Shown here in pieces: positions 6,512-40,587 of a DNA stretch of 64,000 nucleotides (positions are counted from its first letter, which is position 1; each line of letters opens with the position of its first letter). The stretch lies in the IMG/VR virus record IMGVR_UViG_3300031784_000011, positions 64,001 through 128,000 of that record. One strand, 5' to 3'. Origin of the DNA: a virus (Duplodnaviria; Heunggongvirae; Uroviricota; Caudoviricetes). A model generated the notes under the pieces. That model was not told the origin of the DNA. It was given only the letters and a program-made list of their open reading frames with translations, and did no database searches. The position numbers and the translations under genes were made by a program.

Positions 6512-9076
6512 TTAACATCCATCACCAATTGTATACTGAGTAGTTACCGAACCAGAAACTACTTCATAAATTACACTTCCAATTTGAAAAAACCCATCAA
6601 ATGTTGTTGTTAAGTTATTATTCGTGTAGATGGTAACACCTGAATCATAAATATTGACCACATTTGGTAATGTGTATAATGTTACACTATACGAACCTGA
6701 ACACAACACAACCCCACTACAGTAATTTGTACATCCAACCATATTCCATTCTTGATATGTCGGACTAGGTGTTGGTGTAACTGATGGAGTTTTAGTTGGG
6801 GTTGGGGTTTTAGTTAAAGTAGGGGTTGGGGTTGGGGAAACCGCTACCAAGGATGAACCACAAATTTCGTATAGAGCATTATCATTTATACCATATATTG
6901 TATTTGTCGGTACATACAAAGGTTTAGAAATACCGTCACCAATAATTTCACTAAATATACCTGTTGTCGGGTCTAGAACACCTAAGAATCCATCTGACAA
7001 TGTTGAATATCTGCTAATATATAATTTACCGTTATCAGGATTATATATCATAGACCTTGTTGAGCCAAAAATCCAAGTTGCTCCCGATATTGAATTTAAA
7101 GTAAGTGTGGTGTTTGTTGCAACATCTATTTTGTATACCGTAGACGCACTAACTAAATAAATAATATTGTTCGTCACATCCAAAGCAATTAAACTTGCTG
7201 AGGTGATTGGTAGTGATGTACCATCTAACGAAATAGTATTACCAGAACAAGAATATATTCTACCACTCTGAGCGAAATATAATTTATTATTATTAGGATT
7301 GTAAACAGTCGCTTCAGGGTTTGATAAAGTTATACCTGTAATTTGGTTTGTAAAAGTATCTGTTGAACCATCTATGACACTAATTTGTGAAACTGAAAAA
7401 TTTCCACCTGTTTGACTAAATGCATAAATTTTATTTAAAACAGAATTATATTCAATTTTTCCTAAACCTGATGTTATTCCCGAAATTGATATTGACGATG
7501 TTGTGTTTGTGTTTAAATTTCTTATTAACATTTTAACAGGAAATGATGATTCCCAACTGTATAATTTGTTGTTAGTTGAGTTATATCCTAATAATAAACT
7601 ACTTCCTGACCATGTAAATTCATTTGTTAAACTTGTTGAATTTGGGACAAAAGATTGTACAACACTTGATGCGTTTAGAACGTATGCTTTGTTATTTGAT
7701 GATGAATAAACCATACCTTGTCTACCAACGGCAGAATATGAATTCGTTGCGGCAAGAGTATTTCTAACTGAATCACTACAACCACCTGATGGTGTTGGGG
7801 TCAGGGTCGGGGTTACGGTATTAGTAGGTGTTACACTTGGGGTCGCAACTGGATTACCGGATGGACTTGGTGTTGGGGTTTTTGTTGGGGTCGGGGTTGG
7901 AGATACAATAGGTACAGGTAATGTAAAATTCACAGAATTAGTACACGTACCAGTACTTTGAACTGTAAATGTTGTTATTGAATAACACACAAGTGCGGTA
8001 TACCCAGATAATAATTGAGATGTTGTCACACCAGTTGCAATTAATACTATAGTTCCTCCTGTTGTTGTTCCCGAAATATTATAAGGTCCGGCTTGCGTTA
8101 AAAAATAAATTGGGTGTAATGAGAATGTATATTGAGTACATCCTGTAGGTACTAGTGAAGGTGATGGGGTTACTGTGGGTGTTACACTAACAGTTACCGA
8201 AGGTGTTAATGAAGGGGTATTTGTGGGTGTATTTGTTGGTGTAACCGAAGGTGTCGAACCTAACGTACTTGACGGTGTATTTGTGGGTGTATTTGTTGGT
8301 GTAACCGAAGGTGTCGGAGTTAGACTTGGAGTTTTTGTTGGAGTTACAGTATTTGTTGGGGTTGGGGTTTCGGAAGGAGTTTCGGAAGGAGTTTGTGTTA
8401 ATGTGGGTGTTGGAGTTGGGGTCACACTCGGACAAACTACAGTACAGAAACCATTGAAAGATATCCCTGCATATGGGTAACTCGGGTCGTAACAAACATA
8501 TGTTGGTGAAAATGAACCACTATGATATACACCACAACAGTCCGTATAATACCAATTTGGTGAATCGGTTATACCTGAGTAACATAAAGTTGGTGTGGGT
8601 GTTGGAGTAGGGGTAGGAGTTGGACTTGGTGGTGTTAAACAGTCAATACAATTTGTAAAAAGAGCATTTTCAGAAATTAATTGTGCAACAGTATAATTGT
8701 AAGTGGTGCTACCAGTGCCTTGTTCATAAACTCCTGTATAGTTGTAACATGTACCATCATAAGAAATTGTTGCACCTGTACTTTGGAAATACTGATTAAC
8801 TTCTGAATTTTTTAAACCAAAGTAAACAAATGCCCCTGGTATTTGGCAATGTTCAAATTGCCACCCATTAAAATCGTCGTTACATTGTTCACAGGTTGTA
8901 TAACCACTAAAAATAACCGTACCTGACGGTCCACCTCCGACATTTCCTGTTGAAGACCAACATTGGTAATCAGCAAAAATCGTGTCACCCGATAATACTA
9001 AACTGTCATCGACGACAAAATCATAGTATGACGCTGGGTCTAAACAATTTTGAAATGTTATTATTTGTGCTGGCAT
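6512..9076 (-). CDS. 854-aa Cys-module/PT-linker protein with YVTN-type beta-propeller; putative adhesin
   Basis: About seven blades of the form xYNxxNNKxYxxx (MVYSSSNNKAYVLN, VYNPNNNKLYFAQ, MIYNPDNGKLYIS), plus ISVIDGSTDT, at about 6855-7785. Cys modules and PT tracts flank it. Confidence 0.75.
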   Translation of the reverse strand: MPAQIITFQNCLDPASYYDFVVDDSLVLSGDTIFADYQCWSSTGNVGGGPSGTVIFSGYTTCEQCNDDFNGWQFEHCQIPGAFVYFGLKNSEVNQYFQSTGATISYDGTCYNYTGVYEQGTGSTTYNYTVAQLISENALFTNCIDCLTPPSPTPTPTPTPTPTLCYSGITDSPNWYYTDCCGVYHSGSFSPTYVCYDPSYPYAGISFNGFCTVVCPSVTPTPTPTLTQTPSETPSETPTPTNTVTPTKTPSLTPTPSVTPTNTPTNTPSSTLGSTPSVTPTNTPTNTPSLTPSVTVSVTPTVTPSPSLVPTGCTQYTFSLHPIYFLTQAGPYNISGTTTGGTIVLIATGVTTSQLLSGYTALVCYSITTFTVQSTGTCTNSVNFTLPVPIVSPTPTPTKTPTPSPSGNPVATPSVTPTNTVTPTLTPTPSGGCSDSVRNTLAATNSYSAVGRQGMVYSSSNNKAYVLNASSVVQSFVPNSTSLTNEFTWSGSSLLLGYNSTNNKLYSWESSFPVKMLIRNLNTNTTSSISISGITSGLGKIEYNSVLNKIYAFSQTGGNFSVSQISVIDGSTDTFTNQITGITLSNPEATVYNPNNNKLYFAQSGRIYSCSGNTISLDGTSLPITSASLIALDVTNNIIYLVSASTVYKIDVATNTTLTLNSISGATWIFGSTRSMIYNPDNGKLYISRYSTLSDGFLGVLDPTTGIFSEIIGDGISKPLYVPTNTIYGINDNALYEICGSSLVAVSPTPTPTLTKTPTPTKTPSVTPTPSPTYQEWNMVGCTNYCSGVVLCSGSYSVTLYTLPNVVNIYDSGVTIYTNNNLTTTFDGFFQIGSVIYEVVSGSVTTQYTIGDGC

Positions 9077-9120: not shown

Positions 9121-12100
9121 TTAACATGCTTCTCCACAAAATGTGTTACAATAATCACCACAACCAGTACCGTATGTATATTGCGAAGTATATATTGGTG
9201 GTACGAAGTTTCCTCTAAACAATATAAACACATTTGTCACTCTCATAAGACAAACGCTATAATTACCAGGGGCGTTATAACCTTGTGTTGTGAATGTACC
9301 ATCACAACATTGGTATGCAAAGTATACTTGATTATCATCTGAGGCTGTTAAATCATTAATATCAACAAAAAAGTCTGTACACAAACAATCACCACAAGCA
9401 CCATCATACGTTATCTCCCCACCATAAGGACCTAATACACTTGGAATACTACATGAACATATCTCAATTGTACCACTTGCTGGGTACACATTTGGGTCAA
9501 GTATTTCTGTGGGTGTTCCTCCACCGCAACAAGTGGTATAGTTAACTATATTACCAGGTCCTAATCCTGTAATAATATATGACTCACAAACACATGGTGG
9601 AGTTGGGGTTGGGGTCGGAGTTGGAGTTGGGGTTGGGGTTGATGACGGATTTGAAACCGGAGATGGTGTTGGAGTGTTTGTTGGAGTGTTTGTTGGAGTT
9701 ACAGTCTTGGTTGGTGTATTTGTAGGAGTATTGGTTGGTGTTAAAGTTGGAGTAACTGTCCTTGTTGGAGTATTTGTAGGGGTAAAGGTTGGAGTTACAG
9801 TCTTGGTTGGAGTATTTGTAGGGGTAAAGGTTGGAGTTACAGTCTTGGTTGGTGTATTTGTAGGGGTAAAGGTTGGAGTTACAGTCTTGGTTGGTGTATT
9901 TGTAGGAGTATTGGTTGGTGTTAAAGTTGGAGTAACTGTCCTTGTTGGTGTATTTGTCGGTGTTTTTGTTGGGGTTAAAGTTGGTGTAACTGTTGGTGTA
10001 ACTGTTGGGGTTGGTGAAGGACAAGGGTGATAAGTTTCACATTCAGTACATGTATTGTATGTACCATACGCAGTGATTGCGGAACCAGGTACTCCTGGTC
10101 CGACTGAGTTTGTAACAAAATAACAACAACCATTAATTGATATATAACGGTTTACTAAAAGATTTGGGTTAAATCCATTTTGACAACCAAATTGAATTGT
10201 ATATTGTCCTGTTGTACCACAACATCCACATCTTTGTAAATCGAAAATCCAAGTGGCGCATGGGTTAGCTCCAATACATGTTTCACATGTATCAACACTA
10301 AATGATGATGGTGGATAATACCCGTCAACCCCACTAAAGTTTGGTGGTGAGTAGGTTTGACTATAACCTTCAACAAAATAACAACATCCATTTATAACAA
10401 TAGTTTGACCTTGTGAAATACCGCTTTGAACATAGGTCAAATTAGTTGTTATACTTAAATAAGAAATAGTATTACCTAAAATACCACCATCACAACATGG
10501 TAATAAATAAACATAACCAACCTGTAAGGATGGTGATGGTGTTACTGTGCTTGTTGGTGTTAATGTAGGAGTTAAAGTTGGTGTAACTGTTTTTGTTGGT
10601 GTATTGGTAGGGGTTACGGATGGTGTTCTCGTAGGAGTAACACTATTGGTTGGGGTGTTAGTCGGGGTTAAAGTTGGTGTAACTGTTCTTGTTGGTGTAT
10701 TGGTAGGGGTTACCGTAGGGCTAACAGTGGCGGCTGGAGTTCTTGTTGGAGTAACAGTATTTGTTGGGGTATTGGTTGGTGTGAGAGTTGGTGTAACTGT
10801 TCTTGTTGGTGTATTGGTAGGGGTTACCGTATTCGTAGGTGTAACAGTTCTGGTTGGTGTTGGTGTCGGGGTTGGTGATGGACAAAAATTTAGAGTTTCT
10901 CCTAAACATTGTGCACAACTTGTCTGAACAGTAGTGTAAATCGTACCTCCAGGTCCTACCTGTTGCACATACGTTGCACATAACTGAATGTCTTGTAAAT
11001 AAAATACCGTACCTAACAATGTACCTAATGGTACTTGACCATAATAAACATTGGTGTCACCAGGACAACATGATTCAAATCTAGCAGCAACATACTGAGG
11101 ACTAGCCGTTGGGGTTACTGTTTTGGTTGGTGTCAATGTTGGTGTAACAGTATTTGTTGGAGTGTTAGTTGGTGTTACGGTTGGACTAACTGTGGCAGCC
11201 GGTGTTCTTGTTGGTGTAACAGTATTTGTTGGGGTATTTGTTGGAGTTACCGTAGGACTAACAGTGGCTGCTGGAGTTCTTGTTGGGGTATTGGTTGGGG
11301 TAACAGTATTTGTGGGGGTTACTGTGTTCGTTGGGGTATTGGTAGGTGTATTTGTTGGTGTTAATGTTGGACTAACAGTAGCCGCTGGTGTTCTTGTTGG
11401 TGTAACAGTATTTGTTGGGGTATTTGTTGGAGTTACCGTATTTGTTGGAGTATTAGTTGGGGTGTTAGTTGGTGTTACAGTGTTGGTTGGTGTATTAGTT
11501 GGAGTTAAAGTTGGTGTAACTGTTCTTGTTGGTGTATTGGTAGGTGTAACTGTATTCGTAGGGGTGACTGTATTAGTTGGAGTGTTGGTTGGAGTATTAG
11601 TTGGAGTTAAGGTTGGACTAACAGTGGCAGCTGGTGTTCTTGTCGGGGTTACGGTATTAGTAGGGGTATTGGTTGGAGTTACCGTATTTGTTGGAGTATT
11701 AGTTGGGGTGTTGGTTGGAGTAACAGTGTTGGTTGGGGTGTTAGTAGGGGTGTTGGTCGGTGTAACTGTATTTGTTGGAGTAACAGTATTAGTAGGTGTG
11801 TTTGTTGGTGTGTTAGTCGGTGTTAATGTTGGACTAACAGTAGCCGCTGGTGTTCTCGTAGGAGTTACAGTATTGGTAGGAGTATTGGTAGGAGTAACGG
11901 TGTTTGTTGGGGTGTTTGTAGGAGTATTGGTTGGTGTTACAGTATTGGTTGGAGTATTGGTTGGTGTAAAAGTTGGTGTAACAGTTTTTGTTGGTGTATT
12001 AGTAGGAGTATTGGTCGGTGTGACAGTGTTGGTTGGTGTTACTGTATTTGTTGGAGTATTGGTTGGGGTATTGGTTGGTGTAAGGGTAGGACTAACAGTG

Positions 12101-15100
12101 GCTGCCGGAGTTCTTGTTGGAGTAACAGTATTGGTTGGGGTATTGGTTGGTGTAACAGTATTAGTCGGCGTATTGGTTGGAGTATTTGTTGGTGTGACTG
12201 TATTCGTTGGAGTGTTAGTAGGTGTAAAAGTTGGTGTGACGGTTCTTGTTGGTGTATTGGTTGGTGTAACGGTATTGGTTGGGGTGTTTGTGGGTGTAAG
12301 GGTAGGACTAACAGTGGCGGCCGGAGTTCTTGTTGGAGTCACTGTATTGGTCGGTGTGTTGGTGGGTGTGACTGTGTTAGTAGGTGTATTTGTAGGTGTA
12401 TTAGTTGGTGTGACTGTATTTGTTGGAGTGTTTGTTGGGGTGTTTGTGGGTGTAACAGTATTAGTAGGAGTATTGGTTGGTGTTACAGTTTTGGTTGGAG
12501 TGTTAGTAGGTGTAACAGTATTAGTAGGTGTATTGGTAGGTGTATTGGTTGGTGTAACAGTATTCGTAGGAGTATTTGTTGGAGTATTTGTTGGACTAAC
12601 AGTAGCTGCTGGTGTTCTTGTTGGTGTAACAGTATTAGTAGGAGTATTTGTTGGTGTAACAGTATTGGTTGGAGTATTAGTAGGTGTATTGGTTGGTGTA
12701 ACGGTATTGGTTGGGGTGTTTGTGGGTGTGTTAGTCGGAGTTACTGTATTGGTTGGTGTGAACGTAGGTGTAACCGTTTTAGTTGGTGTGTTGGTTGGTG
12801 TAACAGTATTAGTAGGTGTATTGGTAGGTGTATTGGTTGGTGTAACAGTATTCGTAGGAGTATTTGTTGGAGTATTTGTTGGACTAACAGTAGCTGCTGG
12901 TGTTCTTGTTGGGGTTACGGTATTAGTTGGGGTTACAGTGTTAGTCGGAGTGTTAGTTGGTGTATTCGTTGGTGTAACGGTATTTGTTGGGGTGTTAGTT
13001 GGTGTATTTGTTGGTGTTACTGTATTGGTAGGAGTATTTGTAGGACTCAATGTAGGTGTAACTGTATTGGTCGGTGTTAAAGTTGGTGTAACTGTCTTTG
13101 TTGGTGTATTAGTAGGTGTCTGAGTTGGTGTAACTGTATTAGTCGGAGTATTAGTAGGCGTAACAGTGTTTGTTGGAGTATTGGTTGGGGTATTTGTAGG
13201 AGTTACCGTATTGGTTGGGGTGTTTGTAGGAGTATTGGTAGGGGTGACAGTCTTGGTTGGAGTATTTGTGGGGGTAACAGTATTTGTTGGGGTAACCGTA
13301 TTAGTTGGTGTGTTGGTTGGAGTATTTGTTGGGGTTAGAGTTGGTGTAACAGTTTTTGTTGGTGTATTAGTTGGAGTAACGGTATTTGTTGGGGTATTGG
13401 TTGGGGTATTTGTAGGAGTTACCGTATTAGTCGGGGTATTAGTAGGCGTAACAGTGTTTGTTGGAGTATTGGTTGGGGTGTTTGTAGGAGTTAAGGTAGG
13501 TGTAACAGTCTTGGTTGGGGTGTTGGTTGGTGTAACTGTATTAGTAGGTGTGTTAGTTGGTGTAACTGTATTAGTAGGTGTATTTGTTGGAGTATTTGTT
13601 GGGGTAACAGTATTCGTAGGAGTATTGGTCGGTGTTAATGTAGGAGTAACAGTTCTTGTTGGAGTATTTGTTGGGGTAACAGTATTCGTAGGAGTATTAG
13701 TAGGTGTTAATGTAGGTGTAACAGTCTTGGTCGGAGTGTTTGTAGGAGTATTTGTTGGTGTAACAGTGTTTGTTGGTGTTACCGTGTTTGTAGGAGTATT
13801 GGTAGGAGTGTTCGTTGGAGTATTGGTTGGTGTTAATGTAGGTGTAACAGTATTAGTAGGTGTTAATGTAGGTGTAACAGTCTTGGTTGGGGTGTTTGTA
13901 GGAGTATTTGTTGGTGTAACGGTGTTCGTAGGGGTAACTGTAGGACTCAATGTAGGGGTTACAGTATTGGTCGGAGTATTAGTAGGTGTTAATGTAGGTG
14001 TAACAGTCTTGGTTGGTGTATTGGTTGGGGTAACCGTGTTAGTTGGTGTGTTGGTGGGTGTTACTGTATTAGTAGGAGTAACTGTAGGACTCAATGTAGG
14101 AGTTACAGTCTTGGTTGGTGTATTAGTGGGTGTGTTTGTTGGTGTAACAGTATTGGTTGGGGTAACCGTGTTAGTTGGTGTGTTGGTTGGAGTATTTGTT
14201 GGGGTATTGGTTGGGGTGACTGTCTTAGTCGGTGTATTAGTTGGGGTTACTGTATTTGTTGGTGTAACCGTATTTGTTGGTGTATTTGTGGGTGTATTGG
14301 TTGGAGTTAAAGTTGGTGTTACAGTTTTTGTTGGTGTGTTGGTCGGTGTAACTGTATTTGTTGGTGTATTTGTGGGTGTATTGGTCGGTGTAACTGTATT
14401 TGTTGGAGTATTTGTTGGGGTGTTAGTGGGTGTAACAGTATTAGTAGGAGTATTTGTGGGCGTATTGGTCGGTGTAACTGTATTTGTCGGAGTATTGGTT
14501 GGGGTATTTGTTGGTGTAACGGTGTTCGTAGGGGTAACTGTAGGACTCAATGTAGGGGTTACAGTGTTTGTAGGAGTGTTTGTGGGAGTGTTGGTTGGGG
14601 TAACTGTATTAGTAGGAGTAACTGTAGGGGTGACAGTTTTAGTAGGTGTATTAGTTGGAGTATTGGTAGGGGTTACAGTATTAGTAGGGGTATTTGTAGG
14701 AGTTAATGTAGGAGTTACAGTCTTGGTTGGGGTATTTGTTGGTGTAACGGTGTTCGTAGGGGTAACTGTAGGACTCAATGTGGGAGTCACCGTATTGGTC
14801 GGAGTATTGGTGGGGGTTACTGTATTAGTAGGAGTATTAGTAGGAGTATTGGTTGGGGTTACCGTGTTGGTCGGAGTTAAAGTTGGTGTAACAGTTTTTG
14901 TTGGTGTATTGGTTGGAGTTACAGTGTTCGTAGGGGTATTTGTTGGTGTTAGAGTTGGTGTAACAGTTTTTGTTGGTGTATTAGTAGGAGTTACGGTGTT
15001 AGTTGGAGTGTTGGTAGGTGTGTTAGTTGGTGTTACAGTGTTGGTTGGTGTATTAGTAGGTGTCTGAGTTGGTGTAACTGTCTTGGTTGGGGTATTAGTT

Positions 15101-18100
15101 GGCGTTACAGTATTGGTTGGGGTTACCGTATTTGTAGGAGTTACGGTATTGGTTGGAGTAACAGTATTAGTCGGCGTTACTGTGTTAGTTGGGGTGTTAG
15201 TGGGGGTAACAGTATTAGTAGGAGTAACGGAATTCGTGGGAGTGTTTGTAGGAGTGTTTGTTGGTGTTAATGTAGGTGTTACGGTTTTTGTTGGTGTATT
15301 GGTTGGGGTTACTGTATTTGTAGGAGTATTTGTAGGAGTTAAGGTAGGTGTAACAGTATTGGTTGGGGTATTGGTAGGTGTGTTGGTCGGGGTGACTGTG
15401 TTAGTTGGTGTAACTGTATTAGTTGGTGTATTCGTAGGGGTTTGAGTTGGTGTAACAGTATTGGTTGGGGTATTTGTTGGAGTTAAAGTTGGTGTGACAG
15501 TTTTTGTTGGTGTATTGGTAGGAGTTACGGTATTTGTAGGAGTATTAGTCGGTGTCTGAGTTGGTGTTACGGTGTTTGTTGGAGTATTGGTTGGAGTTAA
15601 TGTAGGTGTTACAGTCTTGGTTGGTGTATTAGTTGGTGTTACAGTATTAGTAGGTGTAACAGTATTAGTAGGTGTAACAGTGTTTGTAGGTGTAACGGTA
15701 TTGGTGGGAGTCACCGTATTAGTTGGTGTGTTAGTTGGGGTTACGGTGTTGGTTGGAGTAACGGTATTTGTTGGGGTGTTTGTAGGAGTGTTTGTTGGTG
15801 TTAATGTAGGTGTTACGGTTTTTGTTGGTGTATTGGTTGGTGTAACAGTATTTGTTGGTGTGTTGGTGGGTGTGTTGGTGGGTGTTACAGTATTAGTTGG
15901 GGTATTAGTAGGACTCAATGTTGGGGTAACAGTATTCGTTGGTGTTACAGTATTGGTTGGAGTGTTTGTTGGGGTATTTGTTGGGGTTACGGTATTAGTA
16001 GGGGTATTGGTTGGAGTTAATGTAGGAGTAACAGTCTTGGTTGGTGTATTAGTTGGCGTAACAGTGTTTGTTGGGGTGTTAGTTGGGGTATTTGTAGGGG
16101 TTACCGTATTGGTCGGAGTGTTGGTTGGTGTTAATGTAGGAGTAACAGTCTTGGTTGGAGTGTTTGTTGGGGTAACAGTATTGGTTGGAGTCACTGTATT
16201 AGTTGGTGTGTTGGTCGGTGTATTTGTTGGGGTTAAAGTTGGTGTGACAGTTTTTGTTGGTGTATTGGTTGGGGTTACTGTGTTAGTAGGAGTGTTTGTA
16301 GGTGTATTAGTAGGGGTATTAGTATTAGTCGGGGTATTGGTCGGTGTAACTGTATTCGTTGGAGTAACGGTAGGAGTTAATGTAGGAGTAACAGTCTTGG
16401 TTGGTGTATTAGTAGGTGTGTTAGTAGGGGTTACCGTATTGGTTGGGGTGTTAGTCGGGGTAACTGTGTTAGTTGGTGTGTTAGTTGGTGTGTTGGTCGG
16501 AGTTACCGTATTTGTTGGAGTATTTGTAGGGGTTAAGGTAGGCGTAACAGTTCTTGTTGGAGTATTGGTCGGTGTAACTGTATTCGTTGGAGTTACAGTG
16601 TTAGTGGGGGTTACGGTATTGGTCGGCGTTACAGTGTTAGTCGGTGTTACCGTATTAGTTGGAGTATTTGTTGGCGTAACAGTGTTTGTTGGAGTTACAG
16701 TGTTTGTGGGGGTATTGGTTGGAGTATTGGTGGGAGTCTGAGTTGGGGTGACTGTCTTAGTTGGGGTATTGGTCGGGGTAACTGTGTTGGTTGGAGTAAC
16801 GGTATTTGTTGGGGTATTGGTCGGGGTATTGGTTGGAGTTAAAGTTGGCGTAACAGTGTTTGTTGGTGTATTGGTAGGTGTTACAGTATTAGTTGGGGTA
16901 TTGGTTGGAGTTAAAGTTGGTGTAACAGTTTTTGTTGGTGTATTAGTTGGCGTTACAGTATTAGTTGGTGTGTTAGTTGGTGTGTTTGTTGGGGTTACCG
17001 TATTGGTCGGAGTTACCGTAGGACTCAATGTAGGAGTTACAGTATTAGTTGGTGTGTTGGTTGGTGTGACTGTATTCGTTGGAGTGTTAGTAGGTGTCTG
17101 AGTTGGGGTAACAGTATTTGTTGGAGTATTGGTAGGAGTATTGGTAGGGGTTACAGTATTGGTAGGAGTATTGGTAGGGGTTACAGTATTGGTAGGAGTA
17201 TTCGTTGGGGTTAGAGTTGGTGTAACAGTTTTGGTAGGAGTATTAGTAGGGGTTACAGTATTTGTAGGAGTTACCGTAGGACTCAATGTGGGAGTCACCG
17301 TATTAGTTGGTGTATTGGTTGGGGTTACGGTGTTGGTTGGAGTGTTTGTAGGTGTATTAGTTGGAGTAACAGTATTTGTAGGTGTATTAGTCGGGGTATT
17401 GGTTGGTGTTACGGTGTTGGTTGGGGTTAAAGTTGGTGTGACAGTTTTTGTTGGTGTATTGGTTGGCGTAACAGTGTTTGTCGGAGTATTAGTTGGGGTG
17501 TTGGTTGGTGTATTAGTTGGAGTTACAGTGTTGGTTGGAGTGTTAGTTGGTGTTACGGTATTGGTTGGGGTTACTGTGTTTGTAGGAGTATTGGTCGGTG
17601 TATTCGTTGGGGTTAGAGTTGGTGTAACAGTTTTGGTAGGAGTATTAGTAGGAGTTATAGTATTCGTTGGTGTGTTGGTCGGTGTAACAGTATTAGTTGG
17701 GGTGTTGGTTGGGGTGTTGGTTGGAGTAACAGTATTAGTTGGAGTATTAGTTGGGGTGTTGGTTGGAGTAACAGTGTTTGTTGGGGTTACCGTAGGGCTC
17801 AATGTGGGAGTTACAGTTTTAGTAGGGGTGTTTGTTGGAGTTACGGTGTTGGTTGGGGTATTGGTTGGTGTGTTAGTTGGTGTAACTGTATTAGTGGGAG
17901 TCACTGTAGGGCTCAATGTTGGAGTTACAGTGTTGGTTGGGGTGTTAGTTGGTGTATTGGTTGGTGTAACTGTATTCGTTGGAGTGTTTGTAGGAGTGTT
18001 GGTTGGGGTTACAGTATTAGTTGGTGTGTTGGTTGGAGTTAATGTAGGTGTAACGGTTCTTGTGGGGGTGTTGGTAGGGGTTACGGTATTAGTTGGAGTG

Positions 18101-21100
18101 TTTGTTGGGGTATTTGTTGGGGTTACGGTATTAGTTGGAGTGTTTGTTGGGGTATTTGTTGGGGTTACGGTATTAGTAGGGGTATTGGTTGGGGTATTTG
18201 TTGGGGTTACGGTATTAGTAGGGGTATTGGTTGGAGTTAATGTAGGTGTAACGGTTCTTGTGGGGGTGCTGGTAGGGGTTACGGTGTTAGTTGGAGTGTT
18301 GGTAGGTGTGTTAGTTGGCGTAACGGTGTTAGTTGGAGTCACAGTCGGACTCAATGTAGGTGTTACTGTATTTGTTGGGGTGTTGGTAGGGGTATTTGTA
18401 GGTGTTACGGTGTTGGTAGGTGTAACTGTTGGACTCAATGTAGGAGTCACAGTATTTGTTGGTGTATTTGTAGGTGTGTTAGTTGGGGTAACGGTATTAG
18501 TTGGAGTGTTGGTTGGTGTATTTGTTGGTGTTACTGTGTTAGTAGGGGTATTTGTGGGAGTATTTGTAGGTGTTACGGTGTTGGTAGGTGTAACTGTTGG
18601 ACTCAATGTGGGAGTCACAGTTTTAGTAGGAGTATTTGTAGGTGTTACGGTGTTGGTAGGTGTGTTTGTTGGGGTATTGGTTGGAGTTACCGTATTCGTC
18701 GGAGTATTAGTAGGGGTGTTAGTTGGAGTTACAGTGTTTGTTGGTGTGTTTGTAGGGGTATTGGTAGGTGTTACTGTGTTAGTAGGAGTATTTGTAGGAG
18801 TATTGGTTGGTGTTACGGTATTTGTAGGAGTTACAGTTGGTGTTAATGTAGGAGTCACCGTGTTTGTTGGGGTATTGGTGGGAGTATTTGTAGGGGTTAC
18901 CGTATTTGTCGGTGTATTGGTTGGTGTTAAAGTAGGTGTAACCGTTCTTGTTGGAGTGTTAGTTGGTGTAACCGTATTTGTAGGAGTATTAGTAGGGGTG
19001 TTGGTAGGGGTTACAGTATTCGTAGGGGTATTGGTTGGTGTATTCGTGGGTGTGACAGTATTAGTTGGTGTTACGGTTGGACTCAGTGTAGGGGTTACTG
19101 TATTGGTTGGAGTGTTAGTTGGGGTATTTGTAGGTGTAACTGTATTTGTTGGGGTGTTTGTAGGTGTATTAGTTGGTGTAACTGTATTAGTTGGTGTATT
19201 CGTAGGGGTTTGAGTTGGTGTAACAGTATTTGTAGGAGTCACAGTCGGACTCAATGTGGGAGTCACGGTCTTAGTCGGTGTGTTAGTAGGGGTAACTGTG
19301 TTCGTAGGAGTTACCGTAGGACTCAATGTAGGGGTGACAGTGTTGGTTGGAGTATTGGTTGGTGTGTTGGTTGGTGTTACGGTGTTTGTAGGAGTTACTG
19401 TATTAGTAGGAGTGTTCGTAGGGGTATTGGTAGGGGTTACTGTGTTAGTTGGAGTGTTAGTAGGTGTATTGGTAGGAGTAACTGTATTGGTTGGTGTATT
19501 TGTGGGTGTAACAGTGTTAGTTGGTGTGTTAGTTGGTGTGTTGGTAGGAGTTACGGTGTTAGTTGGAGTATTTGTAGGTGTCTGAGTTGGTGTAACTGTA
19601 TTCGTAGGGGTTACAGTCGGACTCAGTGTAGGTGTTACTGTGTTAGTCGGGGTAACTGTAGGTGTATTTGTTGGAGTTACAGTGTTGGTTGGGGTGTTGG
19701 TTGGAGTTACGGTGTTCGTTGGAGTATTGGTTGGTGTATTAGTTGGGGTTACTGTATTAGTTGGAGTATTGGTTGGGGTATTGGTTGGAGTTACAGTCTT
19801 GGTTGGTGTGTTGGTTGGTGTTACGGTGTTTGTTGGAGTATTGGTTGGAGTGTTTGTGGGGGTGTTGGTTGGTGTTACGGTGTTTGTTGGGGTGACTGTA
19901 TTGGTTGGAGTGTTTGTTGGGGTGTTGGTGGGAGTATTTGTAGGGGTTACCGTATTTGTCGGTGTATTGGTTGGTGTTAAAGTAGGTGTAACCGTTCTTG
20001 TTGGAGTTACAGTCGGACTCAATGTTGGAGTTACTGTATTGGTTGGTGTTAGTGTCGGGCTTAATGTTGGTGTAACAGTACTAGTTGGGGTATTGGTTGG
20101 GGTGTTGGTTGGAGTTACCGTATTGGTTGGTGTATTCGTCGGTGTATTTGTAGGTGTAACAGTATTCGTAGGTGTTACAGTTGGAGTATTGGTTGGGGTT
20201 ACTGTGTTAGTTGGAGTATTGGTGGGGGTATTGGTTGGAGTAACAGTATTTGTTGGTGTCACAGTCGGACTCAATGTTGGTGTAACAGTTTTTGTTGGGG
20301 TATTTGTCGGTGTCTGAGTTGGTGTTACGGTATTGGTTGGCGTATTGGTAGGAGTATTGGTTGGCGTATTTGTTGGAGTTACGGTATTAGTTGGTGTGAC
20401 TGTATTGGTTGGGGTGTTAGTCGGCGTGTTCGTAGGGGTGTTGGTTGGTGTTACCGTATTTGTTGGTGTATTAGTAGGTGTGTTAGTAGGTGTTACTGTA
20501 TTTGTAGGCGTGTTCGTGGGAGTCTGAGTTGGTGTTACAGTGTTAGTAGGAGTGTTAGTTGGCGTGTTAGTGGGTGTAACAGTATTAGTAGGAGTCACCG
20601 TTGGACTCAATGTAGGTGTAACAGTATTGGTTGGTGTGTTGGTCGGAGTGTTGGTAGGAGTTACAGTATTAGTAGGAGTCACCGTTGGACTCAATGTAGG
20701 TGTAACTGTATTTGTTGGGGTATTTGTTGGGGTATTGGTAGGAGTTACTGTATTAGTCGGAGTGTTGGTCGGGGTGTTGGTTGGAGTAACAGTGTTGGTG
20801 GGAGTATTGGTTGGAGTGTTAGTTGGTGTATTTGTTGGGGTTACGGTGTTGGTTGGAGATACCGTATTTGTAGGAGTATTGGTTGGAGTGTTAGTTGGGG
20901 TTAGTGTTGGGGTTACGGTGTTTGTTGGGGTATTGGTAGGTGTATTGGTTGGTGTAACGGTATTTGTAGGAGTAACAGTGTTGGTTGGAGTATTGGTAGG
21001 ACTTAATGTTGGCGTATTAGTTGGGGTTACGGTGCTGGTTGGAGTCACTGTTGGACTCAATGTAGGTGTAACTGTATTTGTTGGTGTGTTGGTAGGAGTG

Positions 21101-24100
21101 TTTGTAGGAGTCACAGTATTAGTAGGAGTCACAGTTGGACTTAATGTGGGAGTTACTGTATTAGTTGGAGTGTTGGTAGGTGTGTTAGTTGGGGTTACTG
21201 TATTTGTCGGGGTATTGGTTGGGGTATTTGTTGGTGTAACGGTGTTGGTCGGAGTGTTTGTGGGAGTATTTGTAGGAGTTACTGTGTTCGTAGGAGTTAC
21301 TGTAGGACTCAATGTTGGTGTTACTGTATTTGTTGGGGTGTTAGTAGGAGTGTTTGTTGGAGTCACCGTGTTTGTTGGGGTATTGGTGGGAGTATTTGTT
21401 GGTGTAACAGTATTTGTTGGGGTGTTAGTTGGGGTGTTGGTAGGAGTTACCGTATTGGTTGGTGTGTTAGTTGGGGTGTTGGTAGGAGTTACCGTATTGG
21501 TTGGTGTGTTAGTAGGAGTGTTTGTTGGTGTAACAGTATTGGTTGGTGTGTTAGTAGGAGTGTTTGTTGGTGTAACAGTATTGGTAGGAGTTACAGTTGG
21601 GGTGTTGGTTGGAGTTACAGTATTAGTAGGCGTATTGGTAGGAGTATTAGTTGGAGTTACTGTATTTGTAGAAGTATTGGTAGGAGTATTGGTAGGGGTG
21701 ACAGTATTGGTGGGCGTATTGGTAGGAGTATTGGTTGGGGTGACTGTATTTGTTGGAGTATTTGTTGGGGTGTTAGTTGGAGTTACTGTATTTGTAGGAG
21801 TATTGGTAGGAGTATTGGTAGGGGTGACAGTATTGGTGGGGGTGTTTGTAGGAGTATTGGTAGGGGTGACAGTATTGGTTGGAGTATTAGTTGGGGTGAC
21901 TGTATTTGTTGGAGTATTTGTTGGGGTGTTGGTAGGGGTGTTGGTAGGAGTTACAGTATTGGTTGGAGTAACTGTATTGGTTGGAGTGTTTGTCGGGGTA
22001 TTTGTAGGTGTCAGTGTCGGTGTTACGGTATTTGTTGGAGTATTAGTAGGAGTGTTAGTTGGTGTAACCGTATTTGTTGGTGTATTTGTGGGTGTATTGG
22101 TAGGAGTAACTGTATTGGTAGCCGTATTGGTAGGAGTGTTGGTTGGTGTATTAGTTGGTGTGACTGTATTGGTCGGAGTTACCGTCGGTGTATTTGTTGG
22201 GGTTACGGTATTGGTAGGGGTTACTGTTGGTGTATTCGTAGGCGTGTTTGTTGGGGTTACGGTATTTGTTGGAGTATTAGTGGGGGTATTCGTAGGTGTA
22301 TTGGTTGGTGTTACGGTGTTAGTTGGGGTATTTGTAGGGGTTTGAGTTGGTGTAACGGTATTGGTTGGAGTCACTGTTGGACTCAATGTTGGCGTTACCG
22401 TATTGGTAGGAGTATTAGTTGGCGTATTGGTAGGAGTAACTGTGTTGGTTGGGGTGTTGGTAGGAGTGTTAGTTGGTGTTACAGTATTAGTTGGTGTGTT
22501 AGTTGGTGTGTTTGTTGGTGTTACGGTGTTCGTAGGGGTGTTAGTAGGTGTCAGTGTTGGGGATACCGTATTGGTAGGAGTGTTAGTTGGTGTATTTGTA
22601 GGGGTTACCGTATTGGTAGGAGTATTAGTTGGTGTATTTGTAGGAGTAGCAGTATTAGTAGGGGTATTTGTTGGAGTATTGGTCGGTGTTACAGTGTTTG
22701 TTGGAGTGTTGGTTGGTGTTACAGTGTTTGTTGGGGTGTTTGTCGGAGTGTTGGTTGGGGTATTCGTTGGTGTTACAGTATTTGTAGGGGTTACGGTGTT
22801 GGTTGGAGTATTGGTGGGGCTTAATGTTGGGGTATTTGTAGGGGTTACGGTGTTGGTTGGGGTCGCTGTTGGAGTCAATGTAGGTGTAACTGTATTGGTT
22901 GGGGTATTGGTAGGAGTATTGGTTGGGGTAACAGTATTGGTAGGAGTAACTGTTGGACTCAATGTAGGAGTAACTGTATTGGTAGGAGTGTTTGTTGGTG
23001 TATTGGTTGGTGTTACAGTATTAGTTGGAGTATTTGTTGGAGTTAAAGTTGGTGTAACAGTTTTTGTTGGTGTATTAGTTGGGGTGTTAGTAGGAGTTAC
23101 TGTATTGGTTGGTGTGTTTGTGGGAGTATTGGTTAATGTAACGGATGGTGTTACAGTGTTGGTTGGTGTTACCGTTGGAGTATTGGTGGGTGTTGGGGTG
23201 CTCGTTGGAGTTGGTGAGGGTAACATTGTATAATCAATGTCACAAGAAGGTGCTGGTGTTGGTGAAACCGTCACAGTTACACTTGGTGTATTTGTTGGAG
23301 TTACAGTATTGGTTGGAGTTACAGTATTTGTCGGGGTGTTTGTGGGGGTAACTGTATTGGTTGGAGTCACTGTTGGACTCAATGTTGGTGTTACAGTGTT
23401 AGTAGGAGTGTTGGTCGGCGTGTTAGTTGGAGTATTGGTTGGTGTTACGGTGTTAGTTGGTGTTACCGTAGGACTCAATGTAGGAGTCACAGTATTGGTA
23501 GGTGTATTGGTTGGAGTATTGGTTGGTGTTACGGTGTTAGTTGGTGTTACCGTAGGACTCAATGTAGGAGTCACAGTATTCGTTGGTGTGTTTGTAGGTG
23601 TATTAGTCGGAGTTACGGTGTTGGTTGGAGTTACGGTATTTGTGGGAGTGTTTGTAGGAGTGTTGGTAGGAGTGTTTGTTGGAGTTACGGTGTTGGTTGG
23701 GGTATTGGTTGGGGTATTGGTTGGTGTAACGGTATTTGTAGGAGTATTTGTAGGTGTCTGAGTTGGAGTTACTGTATTCGTCGGTGTGTTTGTTGGGGTG
23801 TTGGTAGGAGTTACGGTATTGGTAGGACTTAATGTTGGAGTGTTAGTTGGAGTATTTGTTGGAGTTACTGTGTTGGTTGGAGTATTCGTAGGTGTAACCG
23901 TATTTGTTGGTGTATTAGTTGGGGTGTTTGTAGGTGTATTAGTTGGTGTCACAGTTTCTGTTGGAGTCACTGTAACAGTATTGGTTGGTGTGACTGTATT
24001 GGTAGGGGTTACGGTGTTGGTTGGTGTAAGTGTTGGTGTTTCTGTGGGAGTATTTGTTGGTGTGTTGGTGGGGGTATTTGTTGGTGTTTCGGTTGGTGTA

Positions 24101-25539
24101 TTTGTAGGTGTATTAGTTGGAGCTACCGTATTTGTTGGAGTTACAGTTGGAGTGTTAGTTGGGGTAACCGTTGGTGTAACAGTATTGGTAGGAGTATTGG
24201 TTGGGGTTTGAGTTGGTGTAACGGTTGCAGTATTTGTTGGTGTTAGGGTAGGTGTTTCAGTTTGTGTTACAGTGGGTGTATTGGTTGGAGTTACAGTATT
24301 GGTTGGAGTTACAGTTGAGGTATTAGTCGGAGTGTTAGTTGGTGTTATGGTGTTGGTTGGGGTATTGGTAGGTGTTTCGGTAGGGGTAACGGTTGGACTC
24401 AGTGTTGGTGTTACTGTGTTAGTCGGAGTATTAGTTGGGGTGTTGGTTGGTGTTTCGGTAGGGGTAACGGTTAGGGTTACGGTGTTGGTTGGAGTATTGG
24501 TTGGTGTTTCGGTTGGTGTTTCGGTTGGTGTATTAGTTGGGGTAACAGTATTGGTTGGAGTTACAGTTGGGGTAACAGTTGGGGTAACAGTTGGAGTTAC
24601 GGTGTTGGTTGGGGTATTGGTTGGTGTTTCGGTTGGTGTTTCGGTTGGTGTATTAGTTGGGGTAACAGTATTTGTTGGGGTGTTAGTGGGTGTTTCAGTC
24701 GGTGTATTAGTTGGGGTATTGGTTGGTGTTTCGGTAGGGGTTACTGTATGAGTTGGTGTATTGGTAGGTGTTTCGGTAGGGGTTACCGTATTTGTTGGAG
24801 TTACAGTTGGAGTTTCGGTAGGGGTAACTGTATTTGTTGGGGTGTTGGTAGGTGTTTCAGTTGGTGTATTGGTTGGGGTTACCGTATTTGTTGGGGTTAC
24901 AGTTGGAGTTTCGGTCGGAGTAACAGTTGGTGTCTCGGTTGGTGTAACTGTATTCGTAGGAGTTACAGTAGGTGTGTTGGCTGGTGATTCGGTTGGAGTT
25001 ACTGTGTTAGTTGGGGTAACTGTAGGAGTTTCAGTTGGGGTAACCGTTGGGGTATTTGTTGGGGTATTGGTTGGAGTTACTGTGTTAGTTGGAGTAACTG
25101 TAGGAGTTTCAGTTGGGGTAACTGTAGGCTCGTTTGTTGGAGTATTAGTCGGAGTTACGGTATTCGTAGGAGTATTTGTTGGAGTGATAGTATTGGTTGG
25201 GGTAACAGTAGGTGTTTTTGTAACCGTAGGTGTAACAGTAGGGGTTTTGGTAACTGTTGGGGTTGGGGTATTTGAAGTAAAGGTTGTTGGTGTTGGTGTT
25301 AATGATGGTGTAAGTGTTGGTGAAGGTGTAGGTGAAGGTGTAGGGCAAGGAATCTCAGCCACACAAGTTTTATCAAGTGACGGAAAATAAACTGAGTAAG
25401 TACCTAAGTAGTAGTTTGTGTCGTAATAATATGGCATCACGACAGTACCTAAATTCAAGGTACCGCCAGTACAAGGATAAAATGTGATAACACCAATTTC
25501 ACCATCAAAATTACCTGTGTTTATTTTTATTAATGCCAT
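9121..25539 (-). CDS. Giant 5472-aa Thr/Pro-rich mucin-like protein with short N-terminal domain and five C-terminal Cys modules
   Basis: One uninterrupted 16.4 kb ORF: 65-aa N-domain, about 4750 aa of (T/S)-X array, then Cys modules separated by shorter arrays. Third codon positions vary, which fits a real coding sequence. Confidence 0.9.
11101..25344 (-). repeat. Coding low-complexity array of TPTN / TVTPTN / TLSP / TKTV / TPAATVSP units
   Basis: Every second codon is Thr (ACN), or occasionally Ser/Ala, giving a 6-nt NGT periodicity and strong G+T skew on the plus strand. Interrupted once at about 23218-23256. Confidence 0.95.
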
Positions 25540-25579
25540 TTAAATCTACAGTCTTATCTATATCTATTTTTATTATAAA

Positions 25580-25608
25580 AATATACTCATTTATTCGGGT
25601 ATTGTCAA
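25580..25608 (-). promoter_or_regulatory. sigma70-like promoter upstream of the giant gene
   Basis: Minus strand TTGACA (25608-25603), 17-nt spacer, TATATT (25585-25580), in the 90-nt intergenic gap. Confidence 0.6.
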
Positions 25609-25629
25609 CGTCTATTTTTACAGTTTTTA

Positions 25630-28600
25630 TCATGGACAATCAAAAATGGAACTACTTAATTCCTCATTAGTTGGTTCTGTAGGACAATGGTTGGCATCGA
25701 TATAATATTGACCGAGGTTGAATCCAATATTTGGATGTTTATCGTATTTGTGTTTCATCAGAATTTGGTCGCTGTTATTTCCATTGAAAACAACAACAAA
25801 TTCATCAGTTAGTGGTGTATTGTCTAATTCAAAATTTAGATTGAAGTATAATCCTGTATCGCAATAATTTAAGTCGACATCAATTACTTCTATGGTTTTA
25901 CCATATTTGTTTATTAAATAATCCCCATGGTTATATAATTCTTTCGGATGGTCACAACAAGGTTCAATAAAATCTGTTGGTTTTTTTTGTAATTCCTCTG
26001 GGAACCTATCGTCAAAAAAGTAAACACTATTTGTAGGTGTTCCAAAATTTTCAATGATTCTATTTGTATAAACTCTTAGTTGTGTTGTTGGTAAAACTTC
26101 AAAAACTTCATAAGTATTATTTTGGGTTAATCCTGTAATGATACTTTTCTTGATTGATGCTAAACATTCAATGTCTGTAATTTCAAGTTTTTGATAGTTG
26201 TACGTAAATGAATACCCTGATACAGGTCCATTCACAATTTGTTGGTGACTATATTCTGTACATTGTTTGTAAGATGCAGATAAAACATATTCCCCAACAT
26301 TTAAATCACAAACACTTTTACCACTTATCGTACCACCACTAATATAACTTTCAATATTGTCATCTGTAGTTTGGTTGTCAATGGTTAATCCGCTATCAAC
26401 TACTAAAACTATAGAGTCACATTTTAAACCATAGTTAAAGTTTGATTTGTATTCAACTTTTGGTTGTATTGTGTAACCTGTGTAATTGTCACAATATGTT
26501 GCACCTGAAACAACTGAAATTGGGGATGATATTGTTCCTTGGTAACCAACAATACTAAATAATTCTACGTGACTTTTTCCTGATGGTGTTGGACATGGGT
26601 CATGTTCAATTTTGGGTTGTAGACCTTCAATTTTGAATTTTACTTCTTTATTTGCTGCATCTACAATATTAAAATCTATTACATCATTTTCTGAAAAACC
26701 AGTTAATTTATATACACAATCACTAACTTTTTGAATGTAAACATCCGCATTTTCATTTGTTCCACTTACACAATTAGCATAAATGTTAAATGGCCATGTT
26801 GAACCTTGTTGGATACCTGTTTTGTATCCAATTACTTCAAAAAACACATCACTCACTAATGTACATCCACTGTTTGAGTCGCAATAAACGGTATTATCAG
26901 TATAAACTTTAACACTGATTCCATTTGTATTTTTTGTGATTTTGTAATCGGCATCAAATCGATAATCAAAATAGTCGACCACTGAACATTCGTTTGGACC
27001 TAATTTTACGGATGAAAACTTAACTTTTTCAACACCATTTTCATCAGTGTATGTTGTGTATTTTATTAATGGTATTGTTTCTGAAAAATATGTTTGGCCT
27101 GTGGTTCCCGTGAAAGCAGAATAGGGTTCATACCCTGCACTATTTCTTGTAATAGTTACGTCATCAATCAATACAGATAACGCCGATAACCATAGTTCTT
27201 TAATTTTAGTAACATCAGGTTCAAGATAATCTTTATAATCACATATTAAGGAAAGATTTACCGTATCACCACTGGTGACCCCACTTGTACATCCTGTAAA
27301 TGGTTGTGCATCAAATAATTTTGCACTGTTTGAAGTGTTACTTGTTCCACTAACAATCACATACATAGAGGATGTTAGACCCGTGTAGTCGGCCCCACCA
27401 TAAACTGTTCCATCAATTTCAATTACAGGATAGTAAGTAACACCTGTAAGGTTTATTAAACCTCTAAAATTATTTTCTTCACCTAAAATATTTTCTAAAT
27501 CTTCCTCAATTACATTTTCAAAATCAGGGTATAGTTCCTCAATAAATTCTAATGGTTGACAATCATATCTATATTGATATTTTGGTCTACCAAACACGTT
27601 ATTTTCTATTAAATTACCGCCGGTCCATTGAGTGGTTGATGGTACTAATTGTTCAACTAATTGTGGCCAATAAGGTGATAATTTATTAACAAATTCAATA
27701 ACATTTATTTGATTATATGGTGTAAAACCTGTTGTTTGTGATATATAATCTCTATAGACATCTTCTAATTGAATATAATTTTTTTTGTAACGAATTTTGT
27801 TAGAATTTGTTACAAGTCCATGAATAAAGGTGTCTAAAAATTCAGCAAAAGTTTTACCTGTTTGGGGTAATAAAGTATTTGTACCAAAACTTATTAATAA
27901 TTCTCTACTTTGTCTAAAGATATCATAATCTATACCTCGTGATGGTGAGATATAAATTCCAATGTTTTTTCTATTTAAAATTAATAAATAATCATCCTCA
28001 ATTGGTTTTCCGTCTTTATTATCGACCGCGGAAACCAATTCATAACCGGTATCTAAACCTGGTAATGTTCTATATAAATCAAAGTATTCTTCTCCGTATG
28101 TGTAGTTTTTATTCTTTGTTTTAATTGTTTTGGTGTTACCCGTTAGTATTGAGTTACTACTGTCTAAAACGAGTGGAGTACGGTGTGATAATGTAATATC
28201 GTACCATCCTGAACCTTTACCAAAGAATATGTTTTCAGTTTCGTTATATGCTCTTCTTGGTAGTCCAGTTTTTTCGTCTACAGGGTAACCCTCTCTGTCA
28301 AATGTTGTTGACGCTGAGTAGTAAACTTTAGAATATGTGAAACCTGTACTATCAAAGGTGGCGTAAGAATATCTTTTGTTACCTTGAATCGCATCGTATA
28401 TGTCTTGTTGTAAATTAAAACTAGATGGAATTGACGTTACTTTATAAATGTATTCATCAATCCTAATCAAAGGCTCGGGTGCCCCCAAAAATTTTAAAAA
28501 GAAATCAATAGAGGATTTTGTTCCTTTTGATTTATAAATGTGAGCAAGATTTATAAGTAATCTTCGATAAAACTCATACTCAGCTTCAATTAAATTCGTA

Positions 28601-40586: not shown

Positions 40587-40587
40587 A

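Follow-up and report, generated by a model that had tools for sequence, protein, structure and literature searches.

A giant Thr-X repeat protein of a freshwater phage as a candidate mucin-like virion tether

Gel-forming mucins carry Cys-rich domains at their ends, and the fibrils of Mimivirus are heavily glycosylated by virus-encoded enzymes. The Pro/Thr linkers of bacterial glycoside hydrolases and giant surface proteins are spacers without a fold between small modules, often kept in a Thr-X register. Polypeptide N-acetylglucosamine (GlcNAc) transferases of the family GT60 put alpha-GlcNAc on Thr of the mucin-type proteins of T. cruzi and Dictyostelium (PMC3769586). As to phages, the virions of the Xanthomonas jumbo phage XacN1 contain periodate-Schiff-positive proteins, credited by the authors to phage glycosyltransferases (PMC5852040), mycobacteriophage glycosyltransferases decorate structural proteins in the host cytoplasm (Freeman et al., 2023, as cited in PMC12619734), and hair-like appendages have been described on the jumbo phages Tenacibaculum PTm1 and Erwinia Y3 (PMC13282480). 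Here we analyse a stretch of 64,000 nucleotides (the window) from a freshwater phage, IMG/VR virus record IMGVR_UViG_3300031784_000011 (288,260 bp, CheckV completeness 92%; the window covers its positions 64,001 to 128,000), which encodes a protein of 5,472 residues dominated by a Thr-X array. Coordinates without a prefix are window positions, G000:C1 denotes the whole phage genome, and L-numbers denote the compared loci and records. We give a probability of roughly one half to the reading that this protein is a virion-attached, mucin-like, probably O-glycosylated tether with Cys-module binding tips; our literature search found no paper describing such a phage array.

The giant open reading frame (ORF) takes up 5.7% of the phage genome and translates without a stop over all 5,472 residues, 88% of which are Thr (45.2%), Pro (20.0%), Asn (14.5%) and Val (8.6%). 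Its array (aa 66-4812, nt 25344-11104) comprises ~4,750 residues, or 87% of the protein. The Thr parity class of this array holds 2,373 positions, occupied by Thr (2300), Ser (56), Ala (12) and five other residues, so that Thr, Ser and Ala together fill 99.8% of the alternate positions; the other parity class is made up of Pro (1001), Asn (745), Val (419), Leu (85) and a remainder that includes a few Lys, Glu and Arg. A single parity is kept over the whole of aa 66-4812, including the 14-residue non-repeat island at aa 762-775, which is even in length, so the register carries on past it, and the longest uninterrupted Thr/Ser/Ala alternation runs for ~4,040 residues (aa 775-4813). The translation and the parity counts thus bear out what a sequence-only reading of the window had proposed, namely a near-strict Thr-X alternation over ~4,750 residues and a register that survives every unit type. 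The spacing between consecutive Pro residues in the array is always even, mostly 4 (621 times) or 6 (357 times) and seldom 2, 8 or 10; hence, the array is a mosaic of TNTP and TNTVTP units. Its charge is zoned, with a Glu-bearing first part of ~475 residues (net -19) and a distal end that rises to +12 per 475 residues, and the repeat variants are graded smoothly along it rather than shuffled. No Pfam family matched three array segments at E<=1, and none matched either terminus.

Very probably, the length of the giant gene is essentially right. The repeats of the array match only to 63-70% on the DNA level, the longest exact DNA repeat is 116 nt, no 151-mer recurs, and 12.8% of the array 31-mers are non-unique. 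A single 14-residue peptide recurs in 139 identical copies, for which 134 different DNA versions are used, and the identity of these copies at third codon positions is 0.39, compared with a random expectation of 0.385; thus, the protein repeat is under strong purifying selection, whereas its synonymous sites are completely randomised. Such scrambling of codons is the opposite of what recent slippage or an assembly expansion would leave behind, and, to judge from its DNA, the array is not a simple assembly expansion. In 18 DNA runs from ~11 studies of lake and freshwater samples, 0.79-0.85 of the array 31-mers were present, compared with 0.97-0.99 of those of the flank, a shortfall that is about as expected from the 12.8% of non-unique 31-mers in k=31 contigs. 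There is only a small chance, in our estimation, that the gene is real while its array was over- or under-extended, or made chimeric, by mis-joined short reads. The non-unique words and their shortfall in the DNA runs would fit such a history, as would the array homologues of related contigs, at least seven of which (L004, L005, L007, L009, L010, L018 and L032) break off inside the array, where assemblers struggle. However, with a longest exact repeat of 116 nt and no repeated 151-mer, 2x150 reads can bridge all repeats; moreover, the frame is open and in register over 16.4 kb, the variants are zoned, ~80% of the array words occur in ~11 independent studies, and complete homologues of 2,737 and 2,940 aa were assembled from other samples. 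Genes of this kind systematically disrupt short-read assemblies, and phage catalogues will count too few of them.

The array consists of beta-branched residues, Pro and Asn, and Pro at every 4 or 6 residues removes a backbone NH, so neither helix nor sheet should form. Consistent with this, a single-sequence AlphaFold2 model of aa 1-200 reached a mean predicted local distance difference test score (pLDDT) of 42 and rendered aa 66-200 as coil without secondary structure, at a low confidence of ~44. A beta-solenoid or a TxT repeat of the ice-binding type was rejected, given 20% Pro recurring at every 4 or 6 residues, the irregular mixture of 4- and 6-residue units and the low-confidence coil model, in agreement with the sequence-only reading, which had taken the frequent Pro as an argument against a solenoid. 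A collagen-like or polyproline-II triple helix was discarded as well, since Gly makes up 1% of the residues and is absent from the array. By inspection, TNTP and TNTVTP units form no N-glycosylation sequons, the residue two positions after Asn being Pro or Val and never Ser or Thr. At 0.25-0.34 nm per residue, the contour length of the array is 1.2-1.6 µm, while a worm-like chain with a persistence length of 1-10 nm has a root-mean-square end-to-end distance of ~50-180 nm. An earlier estimate of 1.2-1.5 µm, several times the virion, therefore holds as a contour length but not as the expected reach, which is roughly one virion dimension. The model describes a virion-sized cloud with sticky tips that could be extended to ~1 µm, and not a rigid micrometre filament. 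One N-acetylhexosamine per Thr would add ~0.5 MDa by simple arithmetic, and glycosylation would push the reach towards the upper end of the 50-180 nm range.

Relatives of the giant protein were gathered through its 1,414-aa upstream neighbour, for which 79 related IMG/VR loci were found. In close relatives, the gene after this marker starts with the same 65-residue N-terminal domain; aligned with 11 relatives, the domain is 76-95% identical in ten and 46% identical in the distant locus L065, with all three Cys invariant. The complete syntenic homologues of L002 (2,940 aa) and L011 (2,737 aa) have arrays built of other units (TPSV/TSSV or TPTI/TPSV), in which the alternate positions are still 100% Thr/Ser. 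At the far end of the chain, Cys module A is 48-51% identical to modules of L002 and L011, and modules B and C are 47-62% identical to those of L011. L065 (2372-4918) encodes a protein of ~850 aa with the shared N-terminal domain and Thr-X linkers of ~150 aa between globular domains, a comparison which suggests that the giant form arose by expansion of a linker; in this locus, the gene lies upstream and not downstream of the homologue of the 1,414-aa marker. The parts that the relatives have kept are the N-terminal domain, the distal modules and the hydroxyl-X register, while unit sequence and length change quickly. Homologue lengths of ~850, 2,737 and 2,940 aa, compared with 5,472 aa here, argue against stabilising selection for one particular length, so the proposal that the size of the gene reflects selection for length was not borne out, the conserved feature being the register. 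The 14-residue island also occurs in L011 (aa 612) and L018 (aa 334), at varying distances from the N-terminus, while L002 lacks it; it may serve for docking, cleavage or cross-linking.

Both the 65-residue N-terminal domain and the five distal Cys modules that the sequence-only reading had described are present, whereas the role of the former as an anchor, like the location of the protein in the virion, is suggested only by gene position and conservation. The N-terminus has no hydrophobic stretch resembling a signal peptide (by eye), and no membrane segment is evident. For the terminal pair of modules, D and E (aa 5316-5472), AlphaFold2 with an alignment of 19 sequences predicted an all-beta structure (pLDDT 89.3, predicted template modelling score 0.80). 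Only these 19 relatives were found among 1.84 billion representative proteins, and the module is C-terminal in every relative in which it is complete; the related-locus search yielded no IMG/VR relative. Fold searches with this pair gave no hit below E 0.05 in Foldseek against the PDB and BFVD, and the best matches of VIA-align (Z 4.1) were generic beta-sandwiches. A word-based search with aa 4813-5472 as its seed yielded, for the most part, giant bacterial proteins, which were matched through their Thr/Pro linkers and were set aside as not truly homologous.

The genome also encodes enzymes that may act on such a chain. It carries two glycan islands and at least six GT2 genes that pass the Pfam cut-off, and the second island opens with two tandem PF11397 genes, which score 244 and 164 bits (Pfam cut-off 21) and cover model positions 2-45 and 98-351 of 352; PF11397 had no match in 14 control cellular genomes. 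PF11397 is the family of the Skp1 hydroxyproline GlcNAc-transferase and also includes the CAZy GT60 polypeptide alpha-GlcNAc-transferases that start mucin-type O-glycans. Nine phage PF11397 homologues share an invariant L95-D96-S97-H98-H99, presumably the DxH metal-binding catalytic motif of the GT27/GT60 GT-A class. No solved structure is related in sequence to the phage PF11397 protein. A PF13640 prolyl 4-hydroxylase was not found in the genome, which makes Thr/Ser a likelier acceptor than hydroxyproline; GT8 (PF01501) was not found either, and GT1 (PF00534) scored below the cut-off only. Relatives of this phage have kept the enzyme, which occurs in at least 189 IMG/VR loci, whereas isolate records with PF11397 number only four (XacN1, Xoo-sp13, CM1 and RAS14).

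Arrays and PF11397 co-occur. We screened phage records for a DNA-level pattern of 12-fold alternation, which has 1,929 matches in this genome, and found the Thr/Ser-X pattern in 5 of 5 and then 15 of 18 PF11397-positive records (20/23 overall). In PF11397-negative phage genomes the pattern was absent from 10 of 13, including the Bacteroidota jumbo phage pT24 and two 640-kb megaphages, while three had 8-16 matches; the matches of RSL1 and 0305phi8-36 proved to be antisense acidic tracts and not Thr/Ser arrays, so that 12 of the 13 have no genuine array. The remaining one, the Prochlorococcus phage P-SSM2 (NC_006883.2:20240-20349), holds a Ser/Thr-X run of ~35 aa with His, Phe, Gly or Asp at X and no PF11397 gene, and this is the only genuine alternating run among the 13 control genomes. 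None of the 13 has a genuine Thr/Pro-type array, and the alternation in the giant protein far exceeds what chance would produce. The idea of a glycosylated bottle-brush, put forward from the sequence of the window, thereby gains circumstantial support from the PF11397 pair, the two glycan islands and the co-occurrence, evidence that is suggestive rather than conclusive. Two further genes of island 2 may bear on its sugar chemistry. A RuBisCO large-chain-like protein (PF00016 catalytic domain, E 1e-31; G000:C1:272967-274196, L091:8967-10196) lies amid the glycan and methyltransferase genes; it is probably a RuBisCO-like isomerase or enolase that has been taken over for sugar chemistry. In a 790-aa protein (G000:C1:279376-281748, L091:15376-17748), a TylF-type O-methyltransferase is fused with an HtrL/YibB and a GT2 domain, which suggests that a single polypeptide builds and transfers methylated sugars.

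Set beside the known systems, the array is the extreme end of a continuum and not a unique invention. The same 14-residue peptide turns up in at least 93 IMG/VR contig stretches, in which the longest unbroken alternation covers 176 residues in the median and 1,168 residues at most, and many giant bacterial proteins contain Thr-X linkers, which are 100-670 residues long (longest unbroken run, 668 aa); the 1,929 alternation matches of this genome compare with a maximum of 451 among 23 other phage records. Large aquatic phages with mucin-type sugar transferases commonly carry linkers of this type, among which the array is the extreme. It is alike to the bacterial Pro/Thr linkers in composition, in its lack of a fold, as a spacer between small globular modules and often in the Thr-X register; unlike them, it is 6-100 times longer, encoded by a phage, fully scrambled in its codons, and made in the cytoplasm without export by a secretion system. 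With its long Thr/Ser plus Pro tandem repeats (T 45%, P 20%), the protein has the composition of the mucin-like class, and its Cys-rich far end resembles the plan of gel-forming mucins. It shares with the GT60-started T. cruzi mucins and Dictyostelium spore-coat proteins their Thr-rich, Pro-flanked repeats and, in two copies in the phage, the family of the initiating enzyme, but it has no sequence homology with them, and a period-2 register is not a feature of mucins. Moreover, the eukaryotic GT60 enzymes work in the Golgi, whereas the phage reaction, if it takes place, would occur in the bacterial cytoplasm.

Among phages, a comparable case is XacN1, whose PF11397 homologue, ORF334, is 48% identical to the enzyme of this phage; however, its periodate-Schiff-positive proteins are not named, its linkers are of ordinary length, and its host and lineage differ. 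XacN1 ORF180 (L117:13436-17215), a hypothetical protein of 1,259 aa, begins with a short N-terminal domain, followed by a Thr/Ser-X linker of ~130 aa, and its large globular regions are joined by shorter Thr/Pro linkers; it is a candidate for one of the periodate-Schiff-positive virion glycoproteins. In mycobacteriophages, as far as the account cited in PMC12619734 goes, the targets are short C-terminal extensions of capsid or tail-tube subunits, the enzymes are of other families, and no giant repeat protein is mentioned. Jumbo-phage hairs and Mimivirus fibrils are comparable as long flexible appendages on very large virions, but have no sequence relation to the array.

The giant gene is probably transcribed. 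Two metatranscriptome runs contained 0.64 and 0.51 of the array 31-mers, compared with 0.16 and 0.10 of those of positions 24000-30000, a gap which is not explicable by uniform carry-over of DNA, and transcription is probably stronger than that of the upstream neighbour. A sigma-70-like TTGACA-17 nt-TATATT lies at 25580-25608 (-) in the 90-nt gap upstream of the gene; motif and RNA contig coverage far above the upstream neighbour together suggest that the giant gene has its own promoter, although promoters of Bacteroidota normally differ from the TTGACA/TATATT consensus. No Shine-Dalgarno sequence precedes the ATG. The mRNA of the array is very rich in C and A and poor in G because of its ACN, CCN and AAY codons, and should be nearly free of stable secondary structure; on the + strand of the window, the array has a GC skew of ~+0.73 and an AT skew of ~-0.4. 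Thr codons are used more evenly in the array (ACA 0.34, ACC 0.28, ACT 0.32) than in the neighbouring genes (ACA 0.52). Additionally, one end of the record holds a cluster of 23 tRNA genes (G000:C1:573-5473), including Thr(UGU), Pro(UGG), Asn(GUU) and Val(UAC), which serve the four residues that account for 88% of the giant protein.

All large ORFs of the window are on the minus strand. Read along this strand from the high end, the first three large proteins (651, 1,611 and 2,007 aa) have no PHROG match and are followed by a block for replication and nucleotide metabolism, with a single-strand DNA-binding protein, a UvsX-like recombinase, an exonuclease, a DnaB-like helicase and two ribonucleotide reductase subunits. 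After the baseplate wedge genes come six proteins of unknown family, the giant gene and three smaller proteins with linkers and Cys modules; the giant gene is thus tightly packed, on the same strand and seven genes downstream of the gp25- and gp6-like genes, within the baseplate and tail-fibre module (Table 1). The sole match from PHROG and Pfam scans of its near neighbours is phrog_15511, of unknown function. Only six ORFs of the whole genome have Thr/Pro linkers, and four of them cluster at the giant gene. The closest DNA matches of the ribonucleotide reductase genes are in Tenacibaculum and Cellulophaga phages, with pT24 as the nearest among isolate phage genomes; the host is probably a member of the Bacteroidota, which these matches and the absent Shine-Dalgarno sequence fit.

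Table 1. Features of the giant gene, its neighbours and the glycan loci
Feature	Position	Strand	Basis or content
Giant ORF, 5,472 codons + stop (P0001)	9121..25539	-	= G000:C1:107949-124367 (+)
N-terminal 65-aa non-repeat domain, Tyr/Gly-rich; Cys C23, C59, C65 invariant; putative virion-docking domain	25345..25539	-	alignment of relatives
Thr-X array part I, aa 66-761	23257..25344	-	register count
14-aa island in array, APSCDIDYT[M/R]LPSP type, aa 762-775	23215..23256	-	conservation
Thr-X array part II, aa 776-4812; TNTP 436 copies, TNTVTP 289 copies, zoned K/R variants	11104..23214	-	register and unit count
Cys module A, aa 4813-4886	10882..11103	-	homologous modules in L002, L011
Thr-X linker, aa 4887-5004, parity opposite to main array	10528..10881	-	sequence
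Cys modules B + C, aa 5005-5165	10045..10527	-	similarity to L011 modules
Thr-X / Pro-Thr linker, aa 5166-5315	9595..10044	-	sequence
Terminal Cys-rich all-beta module pair D+E, aa 5316-5472; candidate ligand-binding tip	9124..9594	-	AlphaFold2 and relatives
gp6-like and gp25-like baseplate wedge genes, head of co-oriented block	38754..41040	-	phrog_6, phrog_219 (E 1.7e-22); phrog_261, phrog_43 (E 4e-19)
Upstream 1,414-aa neighbour, no known family, synteny marker	25630..29874	-	79 related IMG/VR loci
854-aa paralogue-like protein: Cys modules, Thr/Pro linkers, repeat domain	6512..9076	-	phrog_15511 match and sequence
282-aa protein: Thr/Pro linker and Cys module	5600..6448	-	sequence
973-aa protein: several Cys modules with 351 aa of Thr/Ser-X linkers between	2299..5220	-	sequence
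Glycan island 1	G000:C1 153.7-165.8 kb		NAD epimerase/dehydratase, UDP-GlcNAc 2-epimerase, FkbM methyltransferases, four GT2-type enzymes
Glycan island 2	G000:C1 265-282 kb		starts with two tandem PF11397 genes; nucleotidyltransferases, TylF methyltransferases, 790-aa methyltransferase-GT2 fusion
Tandem PF11397 genes	G000:C1:265375-266631 and 266642-267907		E 3e-72, 7e-48

We propose that the 65-residue N-terminal domain would dock the protein on the particle, probably in the baseplate or tail-fibre region, and that the Thr-X array would serve as an intrinsically extended, non-folding and non-aggregating spacer. Its Thr hydroxyls would probably be O-glycosylated in the infected cell by the two GT60-type polypeptide GlcNAc-transferases, after which the enzymes of the glycan islands may extend and methylate the glycans to give a hydrated, protease-resistant bottle-brush. 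The five small Cys-rich beta modules at the far end would be the binding tips. The particle would thereby sample a larger volume for host cells or surfaces, at a typical reach of ~0.05-0.2 µm and a stretched maximum of ~1.2-1.5 µm, with a possible benefit for its encounter rate. A broader proposal, which we regard as speculative and rather doubtful, is that jumbo phages of Bacteroidota and Xanthomonadales share a conserved two-part 'phage mucin' system of GT60-type enzymes with Thr/Ser-X arrays, in which megadalton O-glycosylated bottle-brush appendages would be made in the bacterial cytoplasm; here this would be one chain with a contour above 1 µm, whose hydroxyl-X register would be the recognition code for processive glycosylation.

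Several readings compete with a glycosylated tether. The same adhesin could carry a bare, stiffish and soluble array as an entropic spacer, with the glycosyltransferases acting on host envelope glycans, DNA or other proteins. Giant bacterial surface proteins do have Thr-X linkers of 100-670 aa without an obvious dedicated enzyme, three PF11397-positive phage records lack arrays, and glycan clusters of jumbo phages have been read as tools for host-surface modification (PMC7824862). Nevertheless, we hold a bare chain to be rather unlikely, given that arrays and PF11397 strongly co-occur, that the characterised GT60 members act on proteins (PMC3769586), that glycoproteins are present in XacN1 virions (PMC5852040), and that an exposed chain of 4,750 residues without glycans would be a large protease target. 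All of this bears on whether the chain is glycosylated; other readings concern its place and task. Many copies of the protein might form a hair-like glycocalyx on head or tail, with Cys modules that cross-link and do not recognise a host, and such a coat could protect against grazers, proteases, non-productive adsorption or aggregation, or stick the particle to particles or mucus. The protein does contain many Cys, with an odd count of three in the N-terminal domain, and the Mimivirus fibrils would offer a model. Hair-like appendages of PTm1 and Erwinia Y3 (PMC13282480) and the glycan shields of mycobacteriophage virions (Freeman et al., 2023, as cited in PMC12619734) point the same way. On balance a coat seems unlikely to us: the gene stands in a block headed by baseplate genes and not beside capsid genes, pT24, itself a jumbo phage of Bacteroidota, has no Thr/Ser-X arrays, and distal, fast-evolving terminal modules are typical of receptor-binding tips.

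A role in or around the infected cell rather than in the virion is in our judgement very unlikely; the protein would then be, for example, a surface decoy, a glue or matrix set free when the cell lyses, or a scaffold or sink for the glycan machinery. In favour of such a role, the sigma-70-like motif upstream and the RNA contigs that represent the giant gene better than its neighbour suggest a regulation separate from that of the neighbouring structural genes. However, the N-terminus shows neither an evident signal peptide nor a membrane segment, the architecture of dock, spacer and variable tips is common to the neighbouring fibre-like paralogues, and synteny with the baseplate block is kept in relatives. 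Some of the observations weigh against the tether itself. The phage is uncultured, the array length rests on short-read assembly, searches with the termini (PHROG and Pfam, and fold searches for the terminal module) linked them to no known family of fibres, baseplate proteins or lectins, and the flanking proteins of 1,374 and 1,414 aa are of no recognised family (no usable match in the ESM Atlas for either, and no Pfam or PHROG match for the latter). As to the enzymes, the GT60 family is known also from a cytoplasmic, hydroxyproline-specific branch; glycan clusters of jumbo phages have also been interpreted as modifying host surface polysaccharides (PMC7824862); the co-occurrence set is small and phylogenetically clustered, its positives having mostly been found by similarity to the enzyme of this phage; and three PF11397-positive records lack arrays, although two of them are only 39-54% complete. 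Finally, the strict period-2 register is conserved and is not accounted for by mucin-type glycosylation alone, which does not need such a spacing, so that it falls outside the model; possibly it reflects an acceptor rule of the enzyme, or keeps the hydroxyls on alternating faces of an extended chain.

The link between array and enzyme is directly testable. Were the chain bare, the protein would still mark the extreme of a common type of linker and its gene would rank with the largest of phages, though the finding would be less surprising. Should the array be both made and glycosylated, a bacteriophage would be building a glycoprotein of mucin scale in the bacterial cytoplasm, through an enzyme family so far characterised only in protists. 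The array would then provide a natural template, with scrambled codons, for very long protein spacers that do not fold, a concrete substrate for the many unexplained glycan islands of large aquatic phages, and a physical way for a particle to widen its capture volume in dilute water.

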